Below, piece by piece: positions 2,557 through 9,990 of a DNA stretch of 64,000 bases (positions are counted from its first letter, which is position 1; every line of letters begins with the position of its first letter). Source of the stretch: a virus; the IMG/VR virus record IMGVR_UViG_3300032235_000776, positions 1-64,000 of that record; one strand, given 5' to 3'. A model generated the notes under the pieces. That model was not told where the DNA came from. It was given only the letters and a program-made list of their open reading frames with translations, and did no database searches. The position numbers and the translations under genes were made by a program.

Positions 2557-3240
2557 ATGGGTACCAAAAGAAAAACATATGAGGATTCTTTCACTCTCAA
2601 TATAAAGAAAGAACCTACCAAGATCCAGAAACAAGTTGGTAACTTTCTAAGATCCAATCAACTATCAATACTAACAGGAGACCCAGGAACAGCTAAGACA
2701 TTTCTCTCTATTTACTACGGGTTAAATCTACTTAAGGATGGAGCTATAACAGAGATCATTCTTTCCAAACCAATACAGGAAGTAGGTAAATCAATGGGAT
2801 TTCTTCCGGGTACAGAAGAAGAAAAGATTTCAGCTTACATGGACTCATATACTGCTACCTTTGATAAACTCCTTGGAGTGGGTGGATATCAGTATCTAGT
2901 AAAATCCAAGAGAGTTAGATTTGAACCGGTTAACTTTGTAAGAGGAACTACCTTTGAGAATGCATTGGTTATCCTGGATGAAGCACAGGGTTTAACACTC
3001 CATGAATTAATTACATTTGCTACAAGACTATCTGATTCTGCTAAGATGATCATCCTTGGAGATGTATATCAGGCTGATATAAAAAACTCCGGTTTACCCA
3101 CATTCAAGAAGATTACTCAGGATATCCAAGGAATAGGTCAAATGGAACTTGGTGATGAATTCCAAATGAGATCAGGATTAGTATTGGAGATGTACAGAAA
3201 CTATAAAAAACACTTACATGAAACAGGCATATTACTTTGA
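2557..3240 (+). CDS. phoH: PhoH-family ATPase
   Basis: Walker A GDPGTAKT, MGFLPG, RGTTF, ILDEAQ, GDVYQAD motifs. Confidence 0.95.
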   Translation: MGTKRKTYEDSFTLNIKKEPTKIQKQVGNFLRSNQLSILTGDPGTAKTFLSIYYGLNLLKDGAITEIILSKPIQEVGKSMGFLPGTEEEKISAYMDSYTATFDKLLGVGGYQYLVKSKRVRFEPVNFVRGTTFENALVILDEAQGLTLHELITFATRLSDSAKMIILGDVYQADIKNSGLPTFKKITQDIQGIGQMELGDEFQMRSGLVLEMYRNYKKHLHETGILL

Positions 3241-3730
3241 TGCAGAATTTATTGAGGAGGAAATACATAAGGTAATTGCCTTCTTCAATAGTTTACAAGA
3301 AGGGGATGAGGTAGATTTCTACCTTCATTCTCCAGGAGGATATAATCACGTAATGGAAACAATAAAAAGAATCCTTGAGACTTCTAAGTTTCCCATTACT
3401 CTAATTGCTGCAGGTGAAGTACAATCGGCTGCATTTCTATTGTTTTACTTTTCTAAGTTAAATAAGACTATGCTTCCAAATACTGTGGCCATGCTTCATA
3501 CAATGACTAAAGAGTATGAGGATAGGGACATTCGTCAAAATAGTGATTACTACAAGAAGTCAAAGAAACAATTGGATTCTATGAATGATAGCATAATTAC
3601 TATCCTTGAGACATATAGTGTTTTATCCACTAAGGAAATGCAGGACTACATCAATGGAGAGGATATCTTAGTACTCTCTGATGACCTAGATGCTATCATG
3701 CAAAACTGTCCCTATGGAAATTATTTTTAA
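3218..3730 (+). CDS. ClpP-like serine protease
   Basis: YLHSPGG, VQSAA (catalytic Ser), AMLH (catalytic His). Confidence 0.8.
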   Translation: MKQAYYFDAEFIEEEIHKVIAFFNSLQEGDEVDFYLHSPGGYNHVMETIKRILETSKFPITLIAAGEVQSAAFLLFYFSKLNKTMLPNTVAMLHTMTKEYEDRDIRQNSDYYKKSKKQLDSMNDSIITILETYSVLSTKEMQDYINGEDILVLSDDLDAIMQNCPYGNYF

Positions 3731-3736
3731 AAAAAT

Positions 3737-3767
3737 TTTGGAAATCTAAAATAAAGTGTTATCTTTG
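3737..3767 (+). promoter_or_regulatory. promoter of tRNA operon 1
   Basis: TTTG(3737-40)-N19-TATCTTTG(3760-67), Bacteroidetes primary-sigma consensus. Confidence 0.85.
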
Positions 3768-3775
3768 TATTGTAA

Positions 3776-3850
3776 ATGACAATGAATTTCAATATAGCAA
3801 TTAATAAGGTGTGGGGTGATAGACTCATATCTAGGGGCTATATTATGTAA
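3776..3850 (+). CDS. attenuator leader peptide 1 (MTMNFNIAINKVWGDRLISRGYIM)
   Basis: Near-leaderless ORF; codons 6-16 match array-1 tRNAs; overlaps antiterminator 3829-3839. Confidence 0.85.
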   Translation: MTMNFNIAINKVWGDRLISRGYIM

Positions 3851-3868
3851 TTTACAAGATATTACAAG

Positions 3869-3899
3869 AAGCCTCTAGATAAACTCTAGGGGCTTTTTT
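3869..3899 (+). terminator. attenuator terminator 1
   Basis: AAGCCTCTAGA/TCTAGGGGCTT hairpin plus T-tract; 5' arm can instead pair with ATCTAGGGGCT (3829-3839). Confidence 0.9.
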
Positions 3900-3905
3900 G
3901 TTTTG

Positions 3906-3976
3906 GGGGATAGACACAGGCGAAGTACTTTACATTTGCAATGTAATAGTTTAGGTTTCGATTACCTATATCTCCA
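3906..3976 (+). tRNA. tRNA-Ala(UGC), atypical D arm
   Basis: GGGGATA/TATCTCC-A with G3:U70; anticodon arm TTACA-TTTGCAA-TGTAA. Confidence 0.8.
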
Positions 3977-4030
3977 CAAATACTTTTAAATAATTATTGT
4001 ATTTAAAAGCAAATTTTGTATATTTGTAAT

Positions 4031-4480
4031 ATGAAAAAATGTACAATATGCAAAATTGAAAAGGATGAAGTTAATTTTAATAAGAATAAAACTAGGAAGG
4101 ATGGTATATCAAATGTATGTAAAATTTGCAGCAGAGAAAAATCTTCTACCTACTACAATTCTAATTTAGAAAAACATAGAGAAGAAGTAACTAAAAGAAA
4201 TAACGTACAAAGAGGTTTATTAAAAGATTTTATCAAATCAACGTTAATTACCTCAAAATGTAAAGATTGTGGAAATAAAGATTGGAGAGTTTTAGAATTC
4301 GATCATCTTCCAAATTTTAAAAAAAGAAATGATATTTCATATATGGTTAAAGGAGGGTATAGTTTAGAAAGTATAAAGGATGAAATATCTAAATGTGAAG
4401 TGGTGTGTAGAAATTGTCATTGTATAAGAACAATAGAAAGAAGTGAAAAAGATTATAGAAAAGACTCTTCCGTAGCTTAG
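4031..4480 (+). CDS. HNH-type (homing) endonuclease inserted in tRNA array
   Basis: CxxC pairs, LEFDH, KCEVVCRNCH; own TATATTTG at 4019-4026; stop lies within tRNA-Lys. Confidence 0.8.
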   Translation: MKKCTICKIEKDEVNFNKNKTRKDGISNVCKICSREKSSTYYNSNLEKHREEVTKRNNVQRGLLKDFIKSTLITSKCKDCGNKDWRVLEFDHLPNFKKRNDISYMVKGGYSLESIKDEISKCEVVCRNCHCIRTIERSEKDYRKDSSVA

Positions 4481-4539
4481 TTGGTTAGAGCATTGCACTT
4501 TTAATGCAGAGGTCGGTGGTTCAATTCCACCCGGGAGAA
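4466..4539 (+). tRNA. tRNA-Lys(UUU)
   Basis: TCTTCCG/CGGGAGA; loop CTTTTAA. Confidence 0.95.
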
Positions 4540-4545
4540 CAAAAA

Positions 4546-4617
4546 CCACCTATCGTCCAATGGATAGGACATGGGATTTCTAATCCTTGAATGAGGGTTC
4601 GAGTCCTTCTAGGTGGT
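4546..4617 (+). tRNA. tRNA-Arg(UCU)
   Basis: CCACCTA/TAGGTGG; loop TTTCTAA. Confidence 0.9.
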
Positions 4618-4623
4618 CAATAC

Positions 4624-4692
4624 ACATCCTAGGCTATGGTAGCCAAATGGTCTCCAAAACCATAGGAAATTGTTCGATTCAATTAGGGTGTG
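4624..4692 (+). tRNA. tRNA-Trp(CCA)
   Basis: ACATCCT/AGGGTGT-G; ATGGT-CTCCAAA-ACCAT. Confidence 0.9.
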
Positions 4693-4698
4693 CAAAAT

Positions 4699-4772
4699 TG
4701 TCAATTAGCTCATTTGGTTAGAGCATCACACTGATAATGTGAAGGTGCTAGGTTCGAGTCCTAGATTGACAA
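4699..4772 (+). tRNA. tRNA-Ile(GAU)
   Basis: TGTCAAT/ATTGACA; TCACA-CTGATAA-TGTGA. Confidence 0.95.
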
Positions 4773-4777
4773 CATAT

Positions 4778-4850
4778 TGTGGGGTAGTGCAGCGGCAGCA
4801 TACAGGGCTCATAACCCTAGTGGTCAGGGGTTCGAGTCCCCTCCCCGCAA
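4778..4850 (+). tRNA. tRNA-Met(CAU), initiator-like
   Basis: TGTGGGG/CCCCGCA; three G-C pairs GGG-CTCATAA-CCC in anticodon stem. Confidence 0.85.
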
Positions 4851-4856
4851 CAATAA

Positions 4857-4928
4857 GCAAGTGTAGTATAACGGTTAGTACTCTAGCCTTCCAAGCCTGA
4901 GATGCTGGTTCGATTCCAGTCACTTGCT
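4857..4928 (+). tRNA. tRNA-Gly(UCC)
   Basis: GCAAGTG/CACTTGC-T; loop CTTCCAA. Confidence 0.92.
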
Positions 4929-5045
4929 CAAATGCTCCAGACGTGGAGAACGTAGACAGAAAAGGCCTCTTAATAATGCACACTTTCATCCTAATCGTAG
5001 GTAGGCACAGTTAGTAGATCTGTGGTAATCTTAAAATCTACACTT

Positions 5046-5117
5046 ACTCAAGTAGCTCAGTGGGAGAGCATCTGTTTTACATGCAGAGGGTCGAAGGTTC
5101 AATCCCTTCCTTGAGTA
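5046..5117 (+). tRNA. tRNA-Val(UAC)
   Basis: ACTCAAG/CTTGAGT-A; loop TTTACAT. Confidence 0.93.
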
Positions 5118-5123
5118 CAAAAT

Positions 5124-5197
5124 GGACCTTTAGCTCAATTGGTTAGAGCAACTGACTCATAATCAGAAGGTAGGGAGATCATAACTCTCAAGGTCCA
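5124..5197 (+). tRNA. tRNA(CAU), probably Ile2 (lysidine); elongator Met not excluded
   Basis: GGACCTT/AAGGTCC-A; GA-CTCATAA-TC; Ile2-like body; atypical T loop ATCATAA. Confidence 0.8.
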
Positions 5198-5203
5198 CAA
5201 AAT

Positions 5204-5286
5204 TGTGAGTTCGCATAGAGGCCTAGTGCAGCAGACTGTTAATCTGCCGAAGTAATTCATCATTGGTTCGAATCCAATACTCACAG
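5204..5286 (+). tRNA. tRNA-Asn(GUU) with long variable region
   Basis: TGTGAGT/ACTCACA-G; GCAGA-CTGTTAA-TCTGC. Confidence 0.9.
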
Positions 5287-5291
5287 CAAAT

Positions 5292-5364
5292 GGTCCATAG
5301 GTCAAATGGTTAAGATTTCCCACTGTCTCTGGGTAAGGAACGGGTTCGAATCCCGTATGGACCG
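5292..5364 (+). tRNA. tRNA-Asp(GUC)
   Basis: GGTCCAT/ATGGACC-G; loop CTGTCTC. Confidence 0.9.
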
Positions 5365-5400
5365 CTTTTATTATTCAAATATATGTAGTACCTTTGTAGT

Positions 5401-5676
5401 ATGAAATTAGGATTGGATGATGTATATATAAAGTCAGAAGATTTAGGATTAACAAGTGATATTATTAATCAGTTACATGTACTTGATATAATATCAAATC
5501 CCGAAGGTGAGTTTCTTTATTATCAAGGAGATAATAAATTTTACTATATGTCTTTTAAAAAAAGTGGATACTTAAAAAATCCAGATGGTCCCTGGCATTC
5601 ATTATCCAGTTATAAAAAAATAGATACTAGAACTCCAATAGAAAAAATCAAGCAATGGTTATCTTCTATCTCCTAA
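5401..5676 (+). CDS. hypothetical protein
   Basis: Leaderless ORF after TACCTTTG (5389-5396). Confidence 0.7.
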   Translation: MKLGLDDVYIKSEDLGLTSDIINQLHVLDIISNPEGEFLYYQGDNKFYYMSFKKSGYLKNPDGPWHSLSSYKKIDTRTPIEKIKQWLSSIS

Positions 5677-5734
5677 ACGTAATCTGGATAGTACACCACT
5701 TCCCGAATGATTCAAAAGTAAATTTAATAGAACT

Positions 5735-5914
5735 ATGGAAAAAGTATTTACATATTTAATAAATATTATAAAGAGAAAGAAAATTAAATATAGCACAGGA
5801 CTATGGCATCAATTACACAAAGGAAATGTTATTATATATAATAGTCATCGTAATATTACTAAAAAAGAAGTAGATGAAGTTATTAGTAATTTATTAAATG
5901 GAAAAAATCTTTAG
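5735..5914 (+). CDS. small hypothetical protein (59 aa)
   Basis: MEKVFTYLINIIKRKK...GKNL*; N-terminus similar to next ORF. Confidence 0.5.
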   Translation: MEKVFTYLINIIKRKKIKYSTGLWHQLHKGNVIIYNSHRNITKKEVDEVISNLLNGKNL

Positions 5915-6056
5915 ATATTTAATTAACACAATAAGAAGAGATAGGCCTTCCGGAGTACTTTGGGATTCTTTTTCTAAATCTCAAAAAGAAAATTTTTCAA
6001 AAAAAATCCTGACCCATAAAGAATATATTGATATAAGAGACGGAATATTTGGATAA
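5898..6056 (+). CDS. small hypothetical protein (52 aa)
   Basis: MEKIFRYLINTIRRDR...DGIFG*. Confidence 0.5.
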   Translation: MEKIFRYLINTIRRDRPSGVLWDSFSKSQKENFSKKILTHKEYIDIRDGIFG

Positions 6057-6079
6057 TTAAAAATAAAGTATTATATTTG
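6048..6079 (+). promoter_or_regulatory. promoter of tRNA operon 2
   Basis: TTTG(6048-51)-N20-TATATTTG(6072-79). Confidence 0.85.
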
Positions 6080-6086
6080 TAGTATA

Positions 6087-6140
6087 ATGATGAAGCAATA
6101 TTCATATAGTTCACTCTATTTACCTGATTATTCGGGCTAG
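6087..6140 (+). CDS. attenuator leader peptide 2 (MMKQYSYSSLYLPDYSG)
   Basis: Codons 5-12 are only Tyr/Ser/Leu, matching array 2; TAG stop. Confidence 0.88.
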   Translation: MMKQYSYSSLYLPDYSG

Positions 6141-6165
6141 GAGAGAACTGTATGTAAAAATATAG

Positions 6166-6195
6166 AAACCCTGGCCTAATAAGTCAGGGTTTTTT
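6166..6195 (+). terminator. attenuator terminator 2
   Basis: ACCCTGGC/GTCAGGGT plus T-tract; can instead pair with leader 6123-6141. Confidence 0.9.
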
Positions 6196-6199
6196 ATTT

Positions 6200-6273
6200 A
6201 CCTCTGTGGGCAAACGGTAAAGTCACTGGTCTTAGAAACCAGAGTTTTGGGAGTTCGAATCTCCCCAGGGGTA
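6200..6273 (+). tRNA. tRNA-Leu(UAG), short variable arm
   Basis: ACCTCTG/CAGGGGT-A; CTGGT-CTTAGAA-ACCAG. Confidence 0.9.
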
Positions 6274-6277
6274 CAAT

Positions 6278-6359
6278 GCATCGGTGGTGAAACTGGTAGA
6301 CGCAAGGGACTTAAAATCCCTCGACATATGTCATGTGGGTTCGATTCCCACCCGGTGCA
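6278..6359 (+). tRNA. tRNA-Leu(UAA)
   Basis: GCATCGG/CCGGTGC-A; AGGGA-CTTAAAA-TCCCT; long variable arm. Confidence 0.95.
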
Positions 6360-6364
6360 CAAAT

Positions 6365-6450
6365 AGTAGGTATGCTAGTGGCCTAGCAGTCAGTCTTGAA
6401 AACTGATATACATGGTGAAAATCATGGGGGATCGATACCTCTACCTACTG
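6365..6450 (+). tRNA. tRNA-Ser(UGA)
   Basis: AGTAGGT/ACCTACT-G; TCAGT-CTTGAAA-ACTGA; long variable arm. Confidence 0.88.
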
Positions 6451-6455
6451 CATAT

Positions 6456-6538
6456 AGAAAGTAAACTGAACTGGGTTTAGGCTCCCCTGCTAAGGGATGC
6501 GTAGAGATATCTATTTGGTTCGATTCCAATTCTTTCTG
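6456..6538 (+). tRNA. tRNA-Ser(GCU)
   Basis: AGAAAG/CTTTCT-G; TCCC-CTGCTAA-GGGA; variable arm. Confidence 0.85.
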
Positions 6539-6544
6539 CTATAA

Positions 6545-6625
6545 CCCAACGATGGTAAGGTGGTGAAATCAGAGCACTGTAAATGCTTCGCTTCGGCTAT
6601 TTAGGTTCGATTCCTAACGGTGGGA
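6545..6625 (+). tRNA. tRNA-Tyr(GUA)
   Basis: CCCAACG/CGGTGGG-A; GAGCA-CTGTAAA-TGCTT. Confidence 0.88.
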
Positions 6626-6644
6626 CAAAAAAATTTAAAAAATA

Positions 6645-6675
6645 TTTGACAAATAAATAAAAAGTCATATATTTG
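6645..6675 (+). promoter_or_regulatory. promoter of suppressor-tRNA/Pth unit
   Basis: TTTG(6645-48)-N19-TATATTTG(6668-75). Confidence 0.85.
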
Positions 6676-6686
6676 TAGTGATATAA

Positions 6687-6759
6687 GGACTAATGCTAGT
6701 GGTTAGCAACTTCTCTCTAAAAGAAGCGTCTAAGGGTTCGATTCCCTTTTAGTCCTCCA
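6687..6759 (+). tRNA. amber suppressor tRNA(CUA)
   Basis: GGACTAA/TTAGTCC-T-CCA; CTTCT-CTCTAAA-AGAAG; T arm AAGGG-TTCGATT-CCCTT. Confidence 0.92.
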
Positions 6760-7079
6760 TGGCTTAGATTAAAAAACTCGTAACCGTAACCCGTAGAGAT
6801 TTAACTATCTCTCAACAAGCTGTACAATCTACACATGCAGCTTTAGATTTTGTATTTCAAAATCCCATAACAGCTTTGTTATGGCATCAATCAAATTACC
6901 TTATTCAATTAACCGTAGCTGACGAGGAGGAGTTACTGAATTTAAAAGTCAAACTCTCCGATGTCTCTGTAAAGCATACTGCTTTCAGAGAACCAGATAT
7001 GGACAATCAATTAACTGCTATATGTATAGCACCTGGTAAATTAACAAAGGAAATAACAAAAAAATTTAAATTATTATGA
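6759..7079 (+). CDS. Pth2-like peptidyl-tRNA hydrolase with in-frame TAG at codon 3
   Basis: ATG GCT TAG ATT AAA AAA CTC..., in frame with listed 6876-7079; KLVTVTRRDL..QQAVQSTHAA..FREPD..QLTAICIAP motifs. Confidence 0.82.
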
Positions 7080-7405
7080 TCGCAACTCGCATTATATCCG
7101 CAGAAAATGAAATTTATAATGGTAGACTCATTATAAAATTTGACAGACATAGAATAGTGTTACCTAATAACAACAGTAAAAGAATGTATTTAGGTAAAAG
7201 AAGATACAGAGAATTAATGAATTCAGCAGTAAGTAAAGATATACCTTTAAGATATACTGATGAATATCTATATCATTTACCAAAGAAACTAAAAGAAAGT
7301 ATAGTATTCGATGAACCTGTTAAAGTACAACCTGTTAAAACTCAAGTAGTTACAGAAGAACCTATAAAACAAAAAAGATTTTTTCGATCTTTATTTGGTT
7401 TGTAA
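7076..7405 (+). CDS. hypothetical protein
   Basis: ATGA overlap with Pth2-like gene. Confidence 0.7.
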   Translation: MIATRIISAENEIYNGRLIIKFDRHRIVLPNNNSKRMYLGKRRYRELMNSAVSKDIPLRYTDEYLYHLPKKLKESIVFDEPVKVQPVKTQVVTEEPIKQKRFFRSLFGL

Positions 7406-7425
7406 AAATAAAAGTTGTATATTTG
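7394..7425 (+). promoter_or_regulatory. promoter of tRNA operon 3
   Basis: TTTG(7394-97)-N20-TATATTTG(7418-25). Confidence 0.85.
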
Positions 7426-7429
7426 TAGT

Positions 7430-7504
7430 ATGAAAGTAACATTTACACAGCGTCCAGAGCAACATACCCCATGTTTTACATGGAGTGCTAGGGTCATTGT
7501 GTAA
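7430..7504 (+). CDS. attenuator leader peptide 3 (MKVTFTQRPEQHTPCFTWSARVIV)
   Basis: Codons 4-17 use only, and all of, the 8 amino acids of array 3. Confidence 0.9.
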   Translation: MKVTFTQRPEQHTPCFTWSARVIV

Positions 7505-7532
7505 ATGCATATTCAATATGTCAAAGACTTTG

Positions 7533-7559
7533 AACCCTGGCTAAACACCAGGGTTTTTT
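7533..7559 (+). terminator. attenuator terminator 3
   Basis: AACCCTGG/CCAGGGTT plus T-tract; 5' arm can instead pair with GCTAGGGT (7487-7494). Confidence 0.9.
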
Positions 7560-7566
7560 GTTTTAT

Positions 7567-7639
7567 GCTCGGTTAGTTCACATGGTTAAAACAGTGGGTT
7601 TTCACCCCACAGTAACGAGTTCGATTCTCGTACCGAGTA
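7567..7639 (+). tRNA. tRNA-Glu(UUC)
   Basis: GCTCGGT/ACCGAGT-A; GTGGG-TTTTCAC-CCCAC. Confidence 0.9.
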
Positions 7640-7646
7640 CAAAATT

Positions 7647-7734
7647 CGGGGAGTAGGTCTGTAGTCTGGTAGCAGTCCTGCCTTGGAAGCAGGTGGAGTA
7701 AAATCCCTCGTTGGTTCGAATCCAACCTTCCCGA
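7647..7734 (+). tRNA. tRNA-Pro(UGG) with long variable arm
   Basis: CGGGGAG/CTTCCCG-A; CCTGC-CTTGGAA-GCAGG. Confidence 0.88.
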
Positions 7735-7740
7735 CAATAA

Positions 7741-7812
7741 GTTAGGTTGACTGAATGGTAAGGTCACGGTCTGCAAAACCGCTGTTCGTAGGTTCGATTC
7801 CTACACCTAACT
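7741..7812 (+). tRNA. tRNA-Cys(GCA)
   Basis: GTTAGGT/ACCTAAC-T (U73); loop CTGCAAA. Confidence 0.92.
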
Positions 7813-7816
7813 CTAT

Positions 7817-7891
7817 GGTACATGAGCTAGTCTGGTGATTCAGCGCATGCCTGAAGAGCATGAGAATAAGGTTCGATTCCTTGATGTACCA
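7817..7891 (+). tRNA. tRNA-Phe(GAA)
   Basis: GGTACAT/ATGTACC-A; CATGC-CTGAAGA-GCATG. Confidence 0.9.
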
Positions 7892-7898
7892 CAAATAA

Positions 7899-7972
7899 GC
7901 CTCCAAAGCATAATTGGCTTGATGCACCCGGTTTGTACCCGGGATAACTGGGTTCGACTCCTAGTGGAGGCT
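7899..7972 (+). tRNA. tRNA-Thr(UGU)
   Basis: GCCTCCA/TGGAGGC; CCCGG-TTTGTAC-CCGGG. Confidence 0.92.
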
Positions 7973-7973
7973 C

Positions 7974-8045
7974 TAAGATATAGTTCAGTGAATAGAACAT
8001 CTCCCTACGAAGGAGAAGACATAGGTTTGAATCCTATTATCTTAT
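7974..8045 (+). tRNA. tRNA-Arg(ACG)
   Basis: TAAGATA/TATCTTA; TCTCC-CTACGAA-GGAGA; encoded CCA 8046-48. Confidence 0.9.
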
Positions 8046-8047
8046 CC

Positions 8048-8120
8048 ACTCCGGTCTTCTAATCGGCAGGAAATCTAACTTTGAATTAGATAATAGTAGG
8101 TTCGAATCCTCTCTGGAGTA
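8048..8120 (+). tRNA. tRNA-Gln(UUG)
   Basis: ACTCCGG/CTGGAGT-A; TCTAA-CTTTGAA-TTAGA. Confidence 0.88.
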
Positions 8121-8126
8121 CAATAT

Positions 8127-8198
8127 GGTGTTTGAAGCATTAAGGTGATGCGCTTTCTTGTGACGAAAGAGAATACGGCTCAATACCGTACTAACACC
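8127..8198 (+). tRNA. tRNA-His(GUG)
   Basis: G-1:C73; CTTTC-TTGTGAC-GAAAG. Confidence 0.88.
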
Positions 8199-8262
8199 CT
8201 AATCCATATTCCAATCTATCATAAGTAGGATTATTCCTACTATAATACCAACAATAAATCCT

Positions 8263-9990
8263 TTAATTATTAAGGCTTCCATTAATTAAATTATTAAGTA
8301 ATTCTCTATCTTCTGCTGCTTTATACCAACCTTTTTCATAGAGAGCATCCATTTGACCACCTCTTGAAAAGTGATTGTGAATTGTTTTAGTATTCTCTAC
8401 AATTGCAGCTAAACCCTTGCTTCTCATTTGATGCCATAACCAATTGTCACAACCTACGTGATGGAAGCGAGTATCAAAGATTTCTCCATTTGATAAATAA
8501 TCAATTGCACTTCTTTTGATCATGAAGTGTTCGCACTCTTGTACACCGGTGTTAAAGATAAGTAACTCATAACCAACCTTTTGTGATTTAATTACTGCTT
8601 TGATAAAGTCATCTGCATGGAATACTACATCACTTGCAGCAAAGCAAATAAAGTATCCATTACTTTCTTGTACTCCAATTTTTACTTTTTCCGGCACAGT
8701 TTCATCTCCTTCAATAGTATGAATAGAAATTAACTCCTGAGGATAGTTTTGTTTTGCAATGGAAGCCAGGCATTTATCCAATCCTTCATCTCTATAACCC
8801 ACTACATGAGGGATAATAACAGAGATAGTTGGTAATCCATTGTAAAATCTAAAGTCTCTTAGATAATCCGAGTTATTTGGTTGGTATTCTAAGCACTTAT
8901 TAAGGTGCTCCTTAGCTTCATTAATCATTCCCATAAAGCCATATGCAACATATAGTATTCTATGAGGCTCGTCAGTGTAATGACTCATGTTATTTGCATA
9001 ATAATTATTATATGGAATCTCTAAAGCAGCTTTAGCATATGCTACAGCCTGTAAAAGTCTATTATTAAGTAAGTAAAAATTAGCAAATTCAATGTAAGGT
9101 TCTCTTCTTGAGCCATCAGTGTAGATAGATTGGTTATAGTAATCAACCTGTTTATCCGGCATATTGAGAAATCCATAGCATCTACCTATAAAAATCATGC
9201 TTTGAGCATTTTCCATAGGCATTTTACCCATCGTAAGATGTCTTTTTAACTCTCTAATAGCACTTCTATATCTACCGGTAAACATTAATTCTCTACCAAA
9301 GTAGTGAGAGTTACGATCATTCTCAGGATTAAGGTAAGTATCAATTGCAAGACCTCTTAAGTAATGAGATCTGTTAGTTTCTGGGTTTTGAAAGTGCTCT
9401 AACTTGATTACATCCTCTCCAACATACTGTCTTTTTGCATCTCCCTGTAAAACTTCATGAATTACACCTACCCATTTTAAGCATCTTCTATCATATGCCT
9501 TAGAATGCAGGAATTGAATTGCTGGAGATCCATCAGGAAGGTGACTAAATACAAAATTATACTCCAATTGTTGGATATTATCATCAATTAATTTAGAAAT
9601 TAGATCAATATTAAAGGAAGTAAAGATTTCATCACAATCAGGAGTAAAAATAAAGTCTGTATTGGAGAATGTTGCAATGTAATTCCTTGCAGATGAGTAG
9701 TCAAACTGTCTATCTCCTTCTTTAATTACGTTTGCATCTCCATCTACTACATATTTTTCATTAATTTTGGAAGAAAGCTCTTCATCAACCTTAATAAGGA
9801 ACTTATCTCCTACTGTAATGACATTTGCTCCCCAATTTTTAGCTACTTCCACTGTATTATCAGTAGATCCAGTGTCAAGAATATGTACTTCTCCTCCTCT
9901 GGCTTTAAATTCATCCAGGGATTTTAATAATCTTGGTAGAGTCTTAGACTCATTCCTTGCAATTAGGCAAAATGAAAAATTCATGCACAA
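8263..9990 (-). CDS. GT2 glycosyltransferase-TPR-GT2 fusion
   Basis: LIARNE, DTGSTDNT, SARN, DCDE, IHE motifs; TPR-like middle; second ISVIIP GT2 domain. Confidence 0.9.
   Translation of the reverse strand: MCMNFSFCLIARNESKTLPRLLKSLDEFKARGGEVHILDTGSTDNTVEVAKNWGANVITVGDKFLIKVDEELSSKINEKYVVDGDANVIKEGDRQFDYSSARNYIATFSNTDFIFTPDCDEIFTSFNIDLISKLIDDNIQQLEYNFVFSHLPDGSPAIQFLHSKAYDRRCLKWVGVIHEVLQGDAKRQYVGEDVIKLEHFQNPETNRSHYLRGLAIDTYLNPENDRNSHYFGRELMFTGRYRSAIRELKRHLTMGKMPMENAQSMIFIGRCYGFLNMPDKQVDYYNQSIYTDGSRREPYIEFANFYLLNNRLLQAVAYAKAALEIPYNNYYANNMSHYTDEPHRILYVAYGFMGMINEAKEHLNKCLEYQPNNSDYLRDFRFYNGLPTISVIIPHVVGYRDEGLDKCLASIAKQNYPQELISIHTIEGDETVPEKVKIGVQESNGYFICFAASDVVFHADDFIKAVIKSQKVGYELLIFNTGVQECEHFMIKRSAIDYLSNGEIFDTRFHHVGCDNWLWHQMRSKGLAAIVENTKTIHNHFSRGGQMDALYEKGWYKAAEDRELLNNLINGSLNN

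Follow-up and report, generated by a model that had tools for sequence, protein, structure and literature searches.

In a crAss-like phage, we find it moderately likely from the sequence that a Pth2-like gene is under a translational gate to which a tRNA holds the key. One promoter would drive a UAG-reading tRNA and then a Pth2-fold gene with UAG as its third codon, a 'lock and key' cassette in which ribosomes starting at AUG 6759 would yield Met-Ala only, unless tRNA(CUA) inserts a residue at the UAG. Full-length protein would require that this tRNA is transcribed, processed and charged, and that it outcompetes RF1; our inference is that the phage does produce a charged tRNA(CUA) and reads the gate with it. 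The initial annotation, made from the sequence alone, had treated tRNA and gene as one unit, and that description holds. Approximately 100 other phage loci combine a UAG-gated Pth2-like gene with a UAG-reading tRNA.

The window, by which we mean the whole 64 kb stretch of DNA analysed here, comprises positions 1 to 64,000 of a viral record of 91,958 bp, whose completeness is put at approximately 75%. Its terminase, portal and major head proteins match crAss-type PHROGs, and the terminase is 26–28% identical to Crassvirales terminases from Bacteroides, Flavobacterium and gut phages. The G+C content is 27–39%. Because the genes lack Shine-Dalgarno (SD) sequences and a TAnnTTTG-type motif recurs, the host is likely to belong to the Bacteroidota. 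Read in the standard code, the 91,958-bp record contains 60 non-overlapping ORFs of at least 90 aa at a coding density of 90%, some of them spanning 2,241–2,900 aa, and TAG is needed as a sense codon in none of the 60. There is no genome-wide recoding of TAG (code 15), in agreement with the initial annotation. The 60 ORFs stop at TAA (44), TGA (15) or TAG (1), and such near-avoidance of TAG terminators is expected if an amber suppressor is active. Neither a release-factor gene (RF-1 domain, PF00472) nor a gene for a CCA-adding enzyme was found in the 92 kb of this approximately 75% complete record. The sole long ORF with a TAG stop encodes an HNH endonuclease (4016–4480); its TAG lies inside tRNA-Lys, and a TAA follows seven codons on.

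We scanned for gates, defined as ATG, no more than seven codons, TAG and then at least 60 open codons. Outside other genes only two places emerged, the Pth2-like gene and a site at 5383. The latter was rejected as a second gate, because its position falls within a promoter-like motif and because the following ORF (5401–5676) starts at its own ATG. Back-up stops behind five small TAG-ending ORFs, all no more than 10 codons away, were also set aside as not significant in an AT-rich genome.

ARAGORN places 22 tRNA genes at 4466–8121. The tRNA(CUA) reported previously is among them, at 6687–6759 on the plus strand, and is also recovered by the Rfam tRNA model (47.9 bits at 6687–6756). Its fold is a standard cloverleaf whose anticodon loop has 7 nt, and it ends with a discriminator U (6756) and an encoded CCA (6757–6759). 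It is at most 71% identical to any of the 21 other array tRNAs, none of which is a close paralogue; its sequence, which also lacks a clear identity set, does not point to a particular amino acid. The promoter proposed ahead of it is recognizable as TTGACA-16 nt-TATATT (6646–6673), agreeing with the consensus at 11 of 12 positions. This promoter-like region (6646–6679, plus strand) overlaps a recurring motif, TATATTTGTAGT (6668–6679), and ends 8 nt before the tRNA. Three exact copies and one close variant of TATATTTGTAGT are present, all in the tRNA region. The looser pattern TANNTTTGTAGT is found five times in the window, where 0.5 occurrences would be expected, and four of the five fall in the tRNA region. 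We take the motif to be of the Bacteroidota TAnnTTTG type.

Several other features of the array were observed. In the form TA(TA/CC)TTTGTAGT the motif stands at 5389–5400, 6072–6083, 6668–6679 and 7418–7429, splitting the array into separately driven blocks. Two short units, at 6060–6200 and 7406–7566, have in common the promoter motif and a near-identical GC-rich hairpin with a T-run (AACCCTGGC...CAGGGTTTTTT); the sequences in between are unrelated. Such units could be small RNAs or could act as leaders for the tRNA blocks that come next. At 6455–6540, a tRNA-like sequence with a long variable arm received no ARAGORN call and matches the Rfam tRNA-Sec model with 29 bits (E 0.007). It folds with acceptor and T arms and has GCU in the loop, and may be a tRNA-Ser. 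The last A of the CCA of tRNA-Arg(ACG) (7974–8048) is also the first base of tRNA-Gln (8048–8121), the same zero-spacer economy as at the junction of tRNA(CUA) and ATG.

At that junction, the start codon of the Pth2-like gene (6759–6761, plus strand) shares A6759 with the tRNA, so that the final A of the encoded CCA is indeed the A of the ATG. Reading proceeds ATG-GCT-TAG-ATT, with the in-frame TAG that we call the gate as codon 3 (6765–6767, plus strand; relatives carry a homologous early TAG) and ATT at 6768, followed by 102 sense codons and TGA at 7077–7079. In the window no spacer separates tRNA and gene; most relatives have 16–210 nt between the two, or the tRNA downstream of the gene. 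The closest viral relative, on a 108-kb contig (L118), has a tRNA(CUA) quite different from that of the window and the same gap of 2 nt between discriminator and ATG. Its codons before the TAG are AGT-TTA as against GCT in the window, while the bases after the TAG are near-identical. A megablast search of 6000–8200 against GenBank phages gave no match.

The arrangement has consequences for how the mRNA might arise. Because the AUG begins 2 nt after the discriminator, a cut directly after the latter (RNase Z type) could leave an almost leaderless mRNA with a CC-AUG 5′ end, whereas trimming to the encoded CCA would cost the AUG its A. Since CCA is encoded in only two of the 22 array tRNAs, tRNA(CUA) and tRNA-Arg(ACG), the array tRNAs are probably matured as a rule by a cut after the discriminator, with CCA added afterwards. 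Initiation on the unprocessed precursor looks hard, since the tRNA helix ends just 3 nt ahead of the AUG, and translation of the gene in the window's phage would seem to depend on this candidate processing route. The earlier suggestion that tRNA 3′ processing decides whether the AUG survives is supported by the 2-nt gap retained in the L118 locus. A search at 4000–8400 with Rfam, which may not include the family, found no HDV-like or theta ribozyme downstream of tRNA(CUA).

The gene itself (6759–7079, plus strand) has 106 codons including the TAG and was assigned as Pth2-like by PF01981, phrog_1866 and fold. The HMM search that the initial annotation had proposed bears out its identity: residues 6–106 match positions 2–115 of the 115 in Pfam PTH2 (PF01981) with 31 bits against a cut-off of 23, and a PF01981 search of the phage's own genome was likewise above the cut-off. 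A profile of the family matches solved Pth2 with E 7e-9. The AlphaFold2 model is confident (pLDDT 91.2, pTM 0.84), and the top Foldseek matches are all Pth2 structures (2zv3, 1q7s, 3erj and 1xty; TM 0.77–0.81). The closest protein (P0002) is 68% identical. In the model the first strand begins at residue 7, which would place the gated residue in a free N-terminal tail. After the TAG there is no canonical start (ATG, GTG or TTG) before TTG 6876, at residue 40, and a start there would remove the first strand and helix. The public gene call (P0003) uses this TTG and yields a 67-aa stump as against 106 codons. With the domain beginning at residue 6, the earlier claim that it lies behind the TAG without an alternative ATG stands, and the claim that a full Pth2-like protein needs read-through at codon 3 is well supported by comparison with relatives.

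The phage protein has the same full-length fold as archaeal and eukaryotic Pth2 (PF01981; 2zv3, 1xty, 1q7s) and keeps the RxDL and Q..HA motifs. The family invariants are T11, R12, D14, Q23, H26, E78, P79, D80 and T86, and the window's ORF, intact after the TAG, retains every one. In Sulfolobus Pth2, the residues reported as catalytic are Lys18, Asp86 and Thr90. On profile alignment, the Lys of GKGK falls in a 2-residue gap of the phage family, the Asp of DAG aligns with the invariant Glu78 (or, after a shift, Asp80) and the Thr of DAGxT aligns with a variable Asp/Gly, so the catalytic residues reported for archaeal Pth2 appear to be only partly kept. Relative to canonical Pth2, then, the loop in the GKGK region is 2 residues shorter and without Lys, and the DAGxT loop is replaced in the phage clade by EPD..N with a 4-residue deletion. 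This clade (phrog_1866) is separate and is found almost only on phage-like contigs, with 10 loci in 185,579 genomes. With the GKGK Lys missing and the DAGxT loop remodelled, the protein is a putative hydrolase on the strength of its predicted fold. The next ORF (7076–7405, plus strand; 109 aa) begins with an ATG that overlaps the Pth2 stop (ATGA), lacks a Pfam or PHROG match and is probably co-transcribed with the Pth2-like gene. It was considered as a conserved partner and dropped, having no homologue in related loci.

An early TAG is characteristic of the family. A homologue profile retrieved 223 relatives from IMG/VR, of which the best 80 and four others were examined. In 80 of 85 loci (these 84 of the 223 and the window's own), the order is ATG, 0–6 codons, TAG and then the conserved domain. 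Within this set, the early TAG is present in 65 of 67 distinct viral homologues and in 41 of 43 clusters at 80% identity, counts that overstate independence since the loci are phylogenetically related. Conservation on this scale speaks against the sequencing error that the initial annotation had allowed for. The TAG is codon 3 in 40 and codon 4 in 17 distinct homologues, with a range from codon 2 to codon 8. Elsewhere TAG is rare in the family genes (5 in 7,526 codons; gene-body counts CAA 364, CAG 97, TAG 5). The gate is no drifted Gln codon, because the two conserved Gln sites are CAA or CAG in 118 of 118 cases and never TAG. Replacement of a conserved Gln by TAG was rejected on a further ground: the Q in database homologues arises where gene callers applied code 15 to the TAG, as in P0006, which is the translation of locus L011 with TAG as Q. 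The neighbourhood of the relatives is not visibly recoded either, because their flanking long ORFs hold only approximately 24 internal TAGs in approximately 66,000 codons.

Related loci from other sources show the same features. On GTDB contigs (one genome per species) the gate is present in eight of ten loci and tRNA(CUA) in nine, all ten lying on MAG contigs, several of them phage-sized; most JGI metagenome loci have both the early TAG and tRNA(CUA). In eight loci (L010, L011, L012, L013, L017, L020, L038 and L046) the interval from the Pth2-like stop to tRNA-Cys also contains a conserved small ORF of approximately 80 aa (...RTEII.HFNK...PMWVIKAKGE.HYV...), which the window lacks. Its conserved peptide starts upstream of the first ATG, and it may be another unconventionally started gene.

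The gate is linked to its putative decoder. A same-strand tRNA(CUA) lies within 3 kb in 67 of 79 early-TAG loci, as against none of the five loci without TAG (Fisher p = 2e-4), which extends to homologues the initial expectation that the TAG would be conserved beside suppressor tRNAs. CUA accounts for 77 of the 232 tRNAs in family loci and is the sole tRNA kind in 22 loci. Counting against the gate, several homologues from the GTDB and metagenome contigs (L134, L135, L151 and L153) have a tRNA(CUA) nearby though they lack any gate. Where the gate is not TAG, the tRNA changes with it. Two homologues with 59% identical proteins, in L002 (2979–3399) and L053 (2961–3342), have no start in the frame of the gene; an ATG lies one base out of frame, and a ribosome starting there reaches the gene only by decoding TGAA as a single codon. 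Each of the two stands beside a tRNA with an 8-nt loop and the four-base anticodon UUCA. In L006 (2976–3327), also without an in-frame start, CGGA at codon 3 must be read as one codon, and UCCG occurs in the loop of a tRNA located 51 nt upstream. A metagenome contig (L163, Ga0180433_10018729) combines a TAA gate with a same-strand tRNA(UUA). TAA gates are found in L110, L139 and L140 too, with no tRNA within the short stretches examined. This co-variation of gate and anticodon is the strongest argument, at the level of sequence, that the neighbouring tRNA decodes the gate.

These variants also bear on what the gate might sense. The initial annotation had proposed a switch between RF1 and suppressor, with Pth made when termination fails. 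That idea is not sustained by the homologues with a four-base gate and a matching expanded-loop tRNA, in which RF1 has no part. Because four-base gates are paired with expanded-loop tRNAs, the principle is not RF1-specific; the common denominator appears to be the activity of the cassette's own non-standard tRNA, rather than RF1 failure.

The main alternative is that translation starts after the gate without any suppressor: ATG-GCT-TAG would be a start-stop mini-ORF or leader, with (re-)initiation at ATT 6768 and the tRNA a mere neighbour. We regard this as unlikely. ATT is a weak but legal bacterial start codon (table 11), so some suppressor-independent protein is possible, and the codon after the gate is ATT, ATA or ATG in 44 of 66 homologues (ATT in 41, GTA or GTT in 14, the rest being ATA, CTT, AAC, AAA, AGA, ACT and ATG). 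The remaining 22 (GTA, GTT, AAC, CTT, AAA, AGA and ACT) are not near-cognate starts, however, and an interchange of Ile, Val and Leu is the pattern of an amino acid and not of a start codon. The base 3′ of the UAG is a purine in 65 of 66 homologues and A in 51, a context classically favourable to amber suppression. SD sequences point in both directions. In L003, AAGGAG lies 6 nt ahead of the ATG that precedes the TAG and is thus placed for it, while the cultured mycobacteriophages Bxz1 (gp154) and Myrna (gp84) read SD, 1 nt, ATG or GTG, TAG, GTG, where the only start codon at a good distance from the SD (7 nt) is the GTG behind the TAG, the one annotated as start. In this lineage, where gp154 of Bxz1 is annotated as peptidyl tRNA hydrolase in relatives and a tRNA(CUA) annotated as tRNA-OTHER (Bxz1, L086 3157–3229) or tRNA-Ser (Myrna, L126 3466–3537) lies 100–300 nt downstream of the gene, gating may be bypassed. 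A start after the gate is harder to reconcile with the quadruplet-gated homologues, which have no in-frame start and match the four-base anticodon of the neighbouring tRNA, and it leaves both the choice of TAG and the linkage to tRNA(CUA) unexplained. A cultured phage of Bacteroidota, Tenacibaculum phage pT24 (L127, approximately 2950–3915), was also seen to have a Pth2-like frame that opens ATG-AAA-TAG-ATA; its deposited CDS starts approximately 100 nt later, and an annotated tRNA-Sup lies 2.6 kb upstream.

Two further readings would remove the gate altogether. If the phage used code 15, the TAG would be one Gln codon among others; a phage-encoded tRNA(CUA), the rarity of TAG as terminator and the Q shown at the gate by database proteins of the family (apparently from code-15 gene callers) would all fit. 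We consider this improbable, given that none of the 60 long ORFs contains another in-frame TAG at 90% standard-code density, that ATG...TAG...long-ORF arrangements occur outside other genes only twice, the second (5383) in a promoter motif before a normal ATG, that the family's conserved Gln sites are never TAG and that the 92 kb contain no release-factor gene. Less probable still, to the point of being hardly credible, is a broken gene or assembly error, in which a CAG-to-TAG change or a tRNA insertion disabled the 5′ end of an ORF now in decay. In the public annotation the gene is indeed a 67-aa fragment, and the zero-length spacer between tRNA and ATG resembles a deletion junction. Decay is contradicted by the recurrence of the early TAG in 41 of 43 clusters, by the L118 locus, which keeps the tRNA, the 2-nt gap, the ATG and the TAG while the codons before the TAG differ, and by the remaining ORF, intact with all family-invariant residues and a confident fold.

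Returning to the tRNA-keyed gate, any inserted amino acid would probably be tolerated, because the gated residue is predicted to fall ahead of the first strand, in the free tail at the N terminus. As to what the gate might be for, the enzyme may provide feedback that limits the charged suppressor, or recycle peptidyl-tRNA dropped during inefficient non-standard decoding; a timer, or a mutual dependence that holds a mobile cassette together, are further options. We regard it as doubtful at best that feedback or recycling comes about through action of the Pth2-like protein on the cassette's tRNA, or on other tRNAs, in their acylated or peptidyl form. The broader proposal, which we consider evenly balanced, is that of a natural and portable tRNA-keyed gate in phages: an amber, ochre or four-base decoder tRNA would be coupled to a Pth2-fold gene with the matching codon at around position 3, the enzyme reporting, and perhaps feeding back on, the activity of the tRNA. 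In the window's crAss-like phage no other gene would need the suppressor, and tRNA 3′ processing may yield a nearly leaderless mRNA.

Known systems share parts of this logic. The gene for release factor 2, prfB, is autoregulated through an early in-frame UGA and a +1 frameshift, and senses its own product. There, as here, an early in-frame stop in a translation-factor gene ties the yield of full-length protein to stop decoding; the key in the phage is predicted to be a separate tRNA encoded in cis. The bar minigenes of phage lambda (AUG-AUA-UAA) cause peptidyl-tRNA drop-off and starve Pth-limited hosts of tRNA. The initial annotation had remarked on the resemblance, and the zero frame of the cassette is similarly a phage transcript with two sense codons (AUG-GCU-UAG) beside a Pth-type function. 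The codons differ, the stop here runs on into a long conserved ORF, and what the cassette has of the bar type is the AUG-NNN-stop form. Closer in lineage, crAss-like and Lak phages use code 15 (TAG = Gln) with phage-encoded suppressor tRNAs (PMC9523058, PMC6784885, PMC10879173). The window's phage, of the crAss-like lineage, resembles them in that a phage tRNA(CUA) would override the host's UAG stop and complete a TAG-bearing ORF. It differs in having one gene with a TAG, at a fixed position (codon 2–8 in the family), in an otherwise standard-code genome; the TAG would act as a gate and not as Gln, no RF2 gene was found in 92 kb, and the window has no Rfam ribozyme downstream of the tRNA.

Phages with a standard code and a suppressor tRNA have been described before. 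The Xanthomonas jumbo phage XacN1 has two CUA suppressors and a Pth gene, with no identifiable target, and its authors considered read-through of terminal ambers only (PMC5852040). A study of Zeta crAss-like phages identified no suppressor target and asks why phages retain 'non-functioning' suppressors (PMC12386605). Going by the published descriptions, these phages are like ours in following the standard code while carrying a tRNA(CUA), in using few TAG stops and in encoding a peptidyl- or aminoacyl-tRNA hydrolase; neither paper (PMC5852040, PMC12386605) describes a TAG early in the gene for that hydrolase. We found no paper that describes the gated Pth2 cassette, and a hydrolase is not mentioned in the papers on theta ribozymes, Lak phages and metaproteomics. 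As far as we have found, the gated cassette is an unpublished variant of phage suppressor-tRNA recoding.

The cassette has practical implications. Gene callers truncate or mis-start the Pth2-like gene (67 aa as against 106 in the window), and the tRNA(CUA) of Bxz1 and Myrna go under the labels tRNA-OTHER and tRNA-Ser. If the gate works, it would be a natural counterpart of the amber-gated circuits of synthetic biology and, with its four-base variants, a source of naturally matched tRNA/codon pairs. For the phages themselves, a conserved target gene beside the tRNA offers a concrete and testable answer to the suppressor question posed by XacN1 (PMC5852040) and the Zeta phages (PMC12386605); if true, it would account for the suppressor tRNAs that look like orphans in phages with the standard code.
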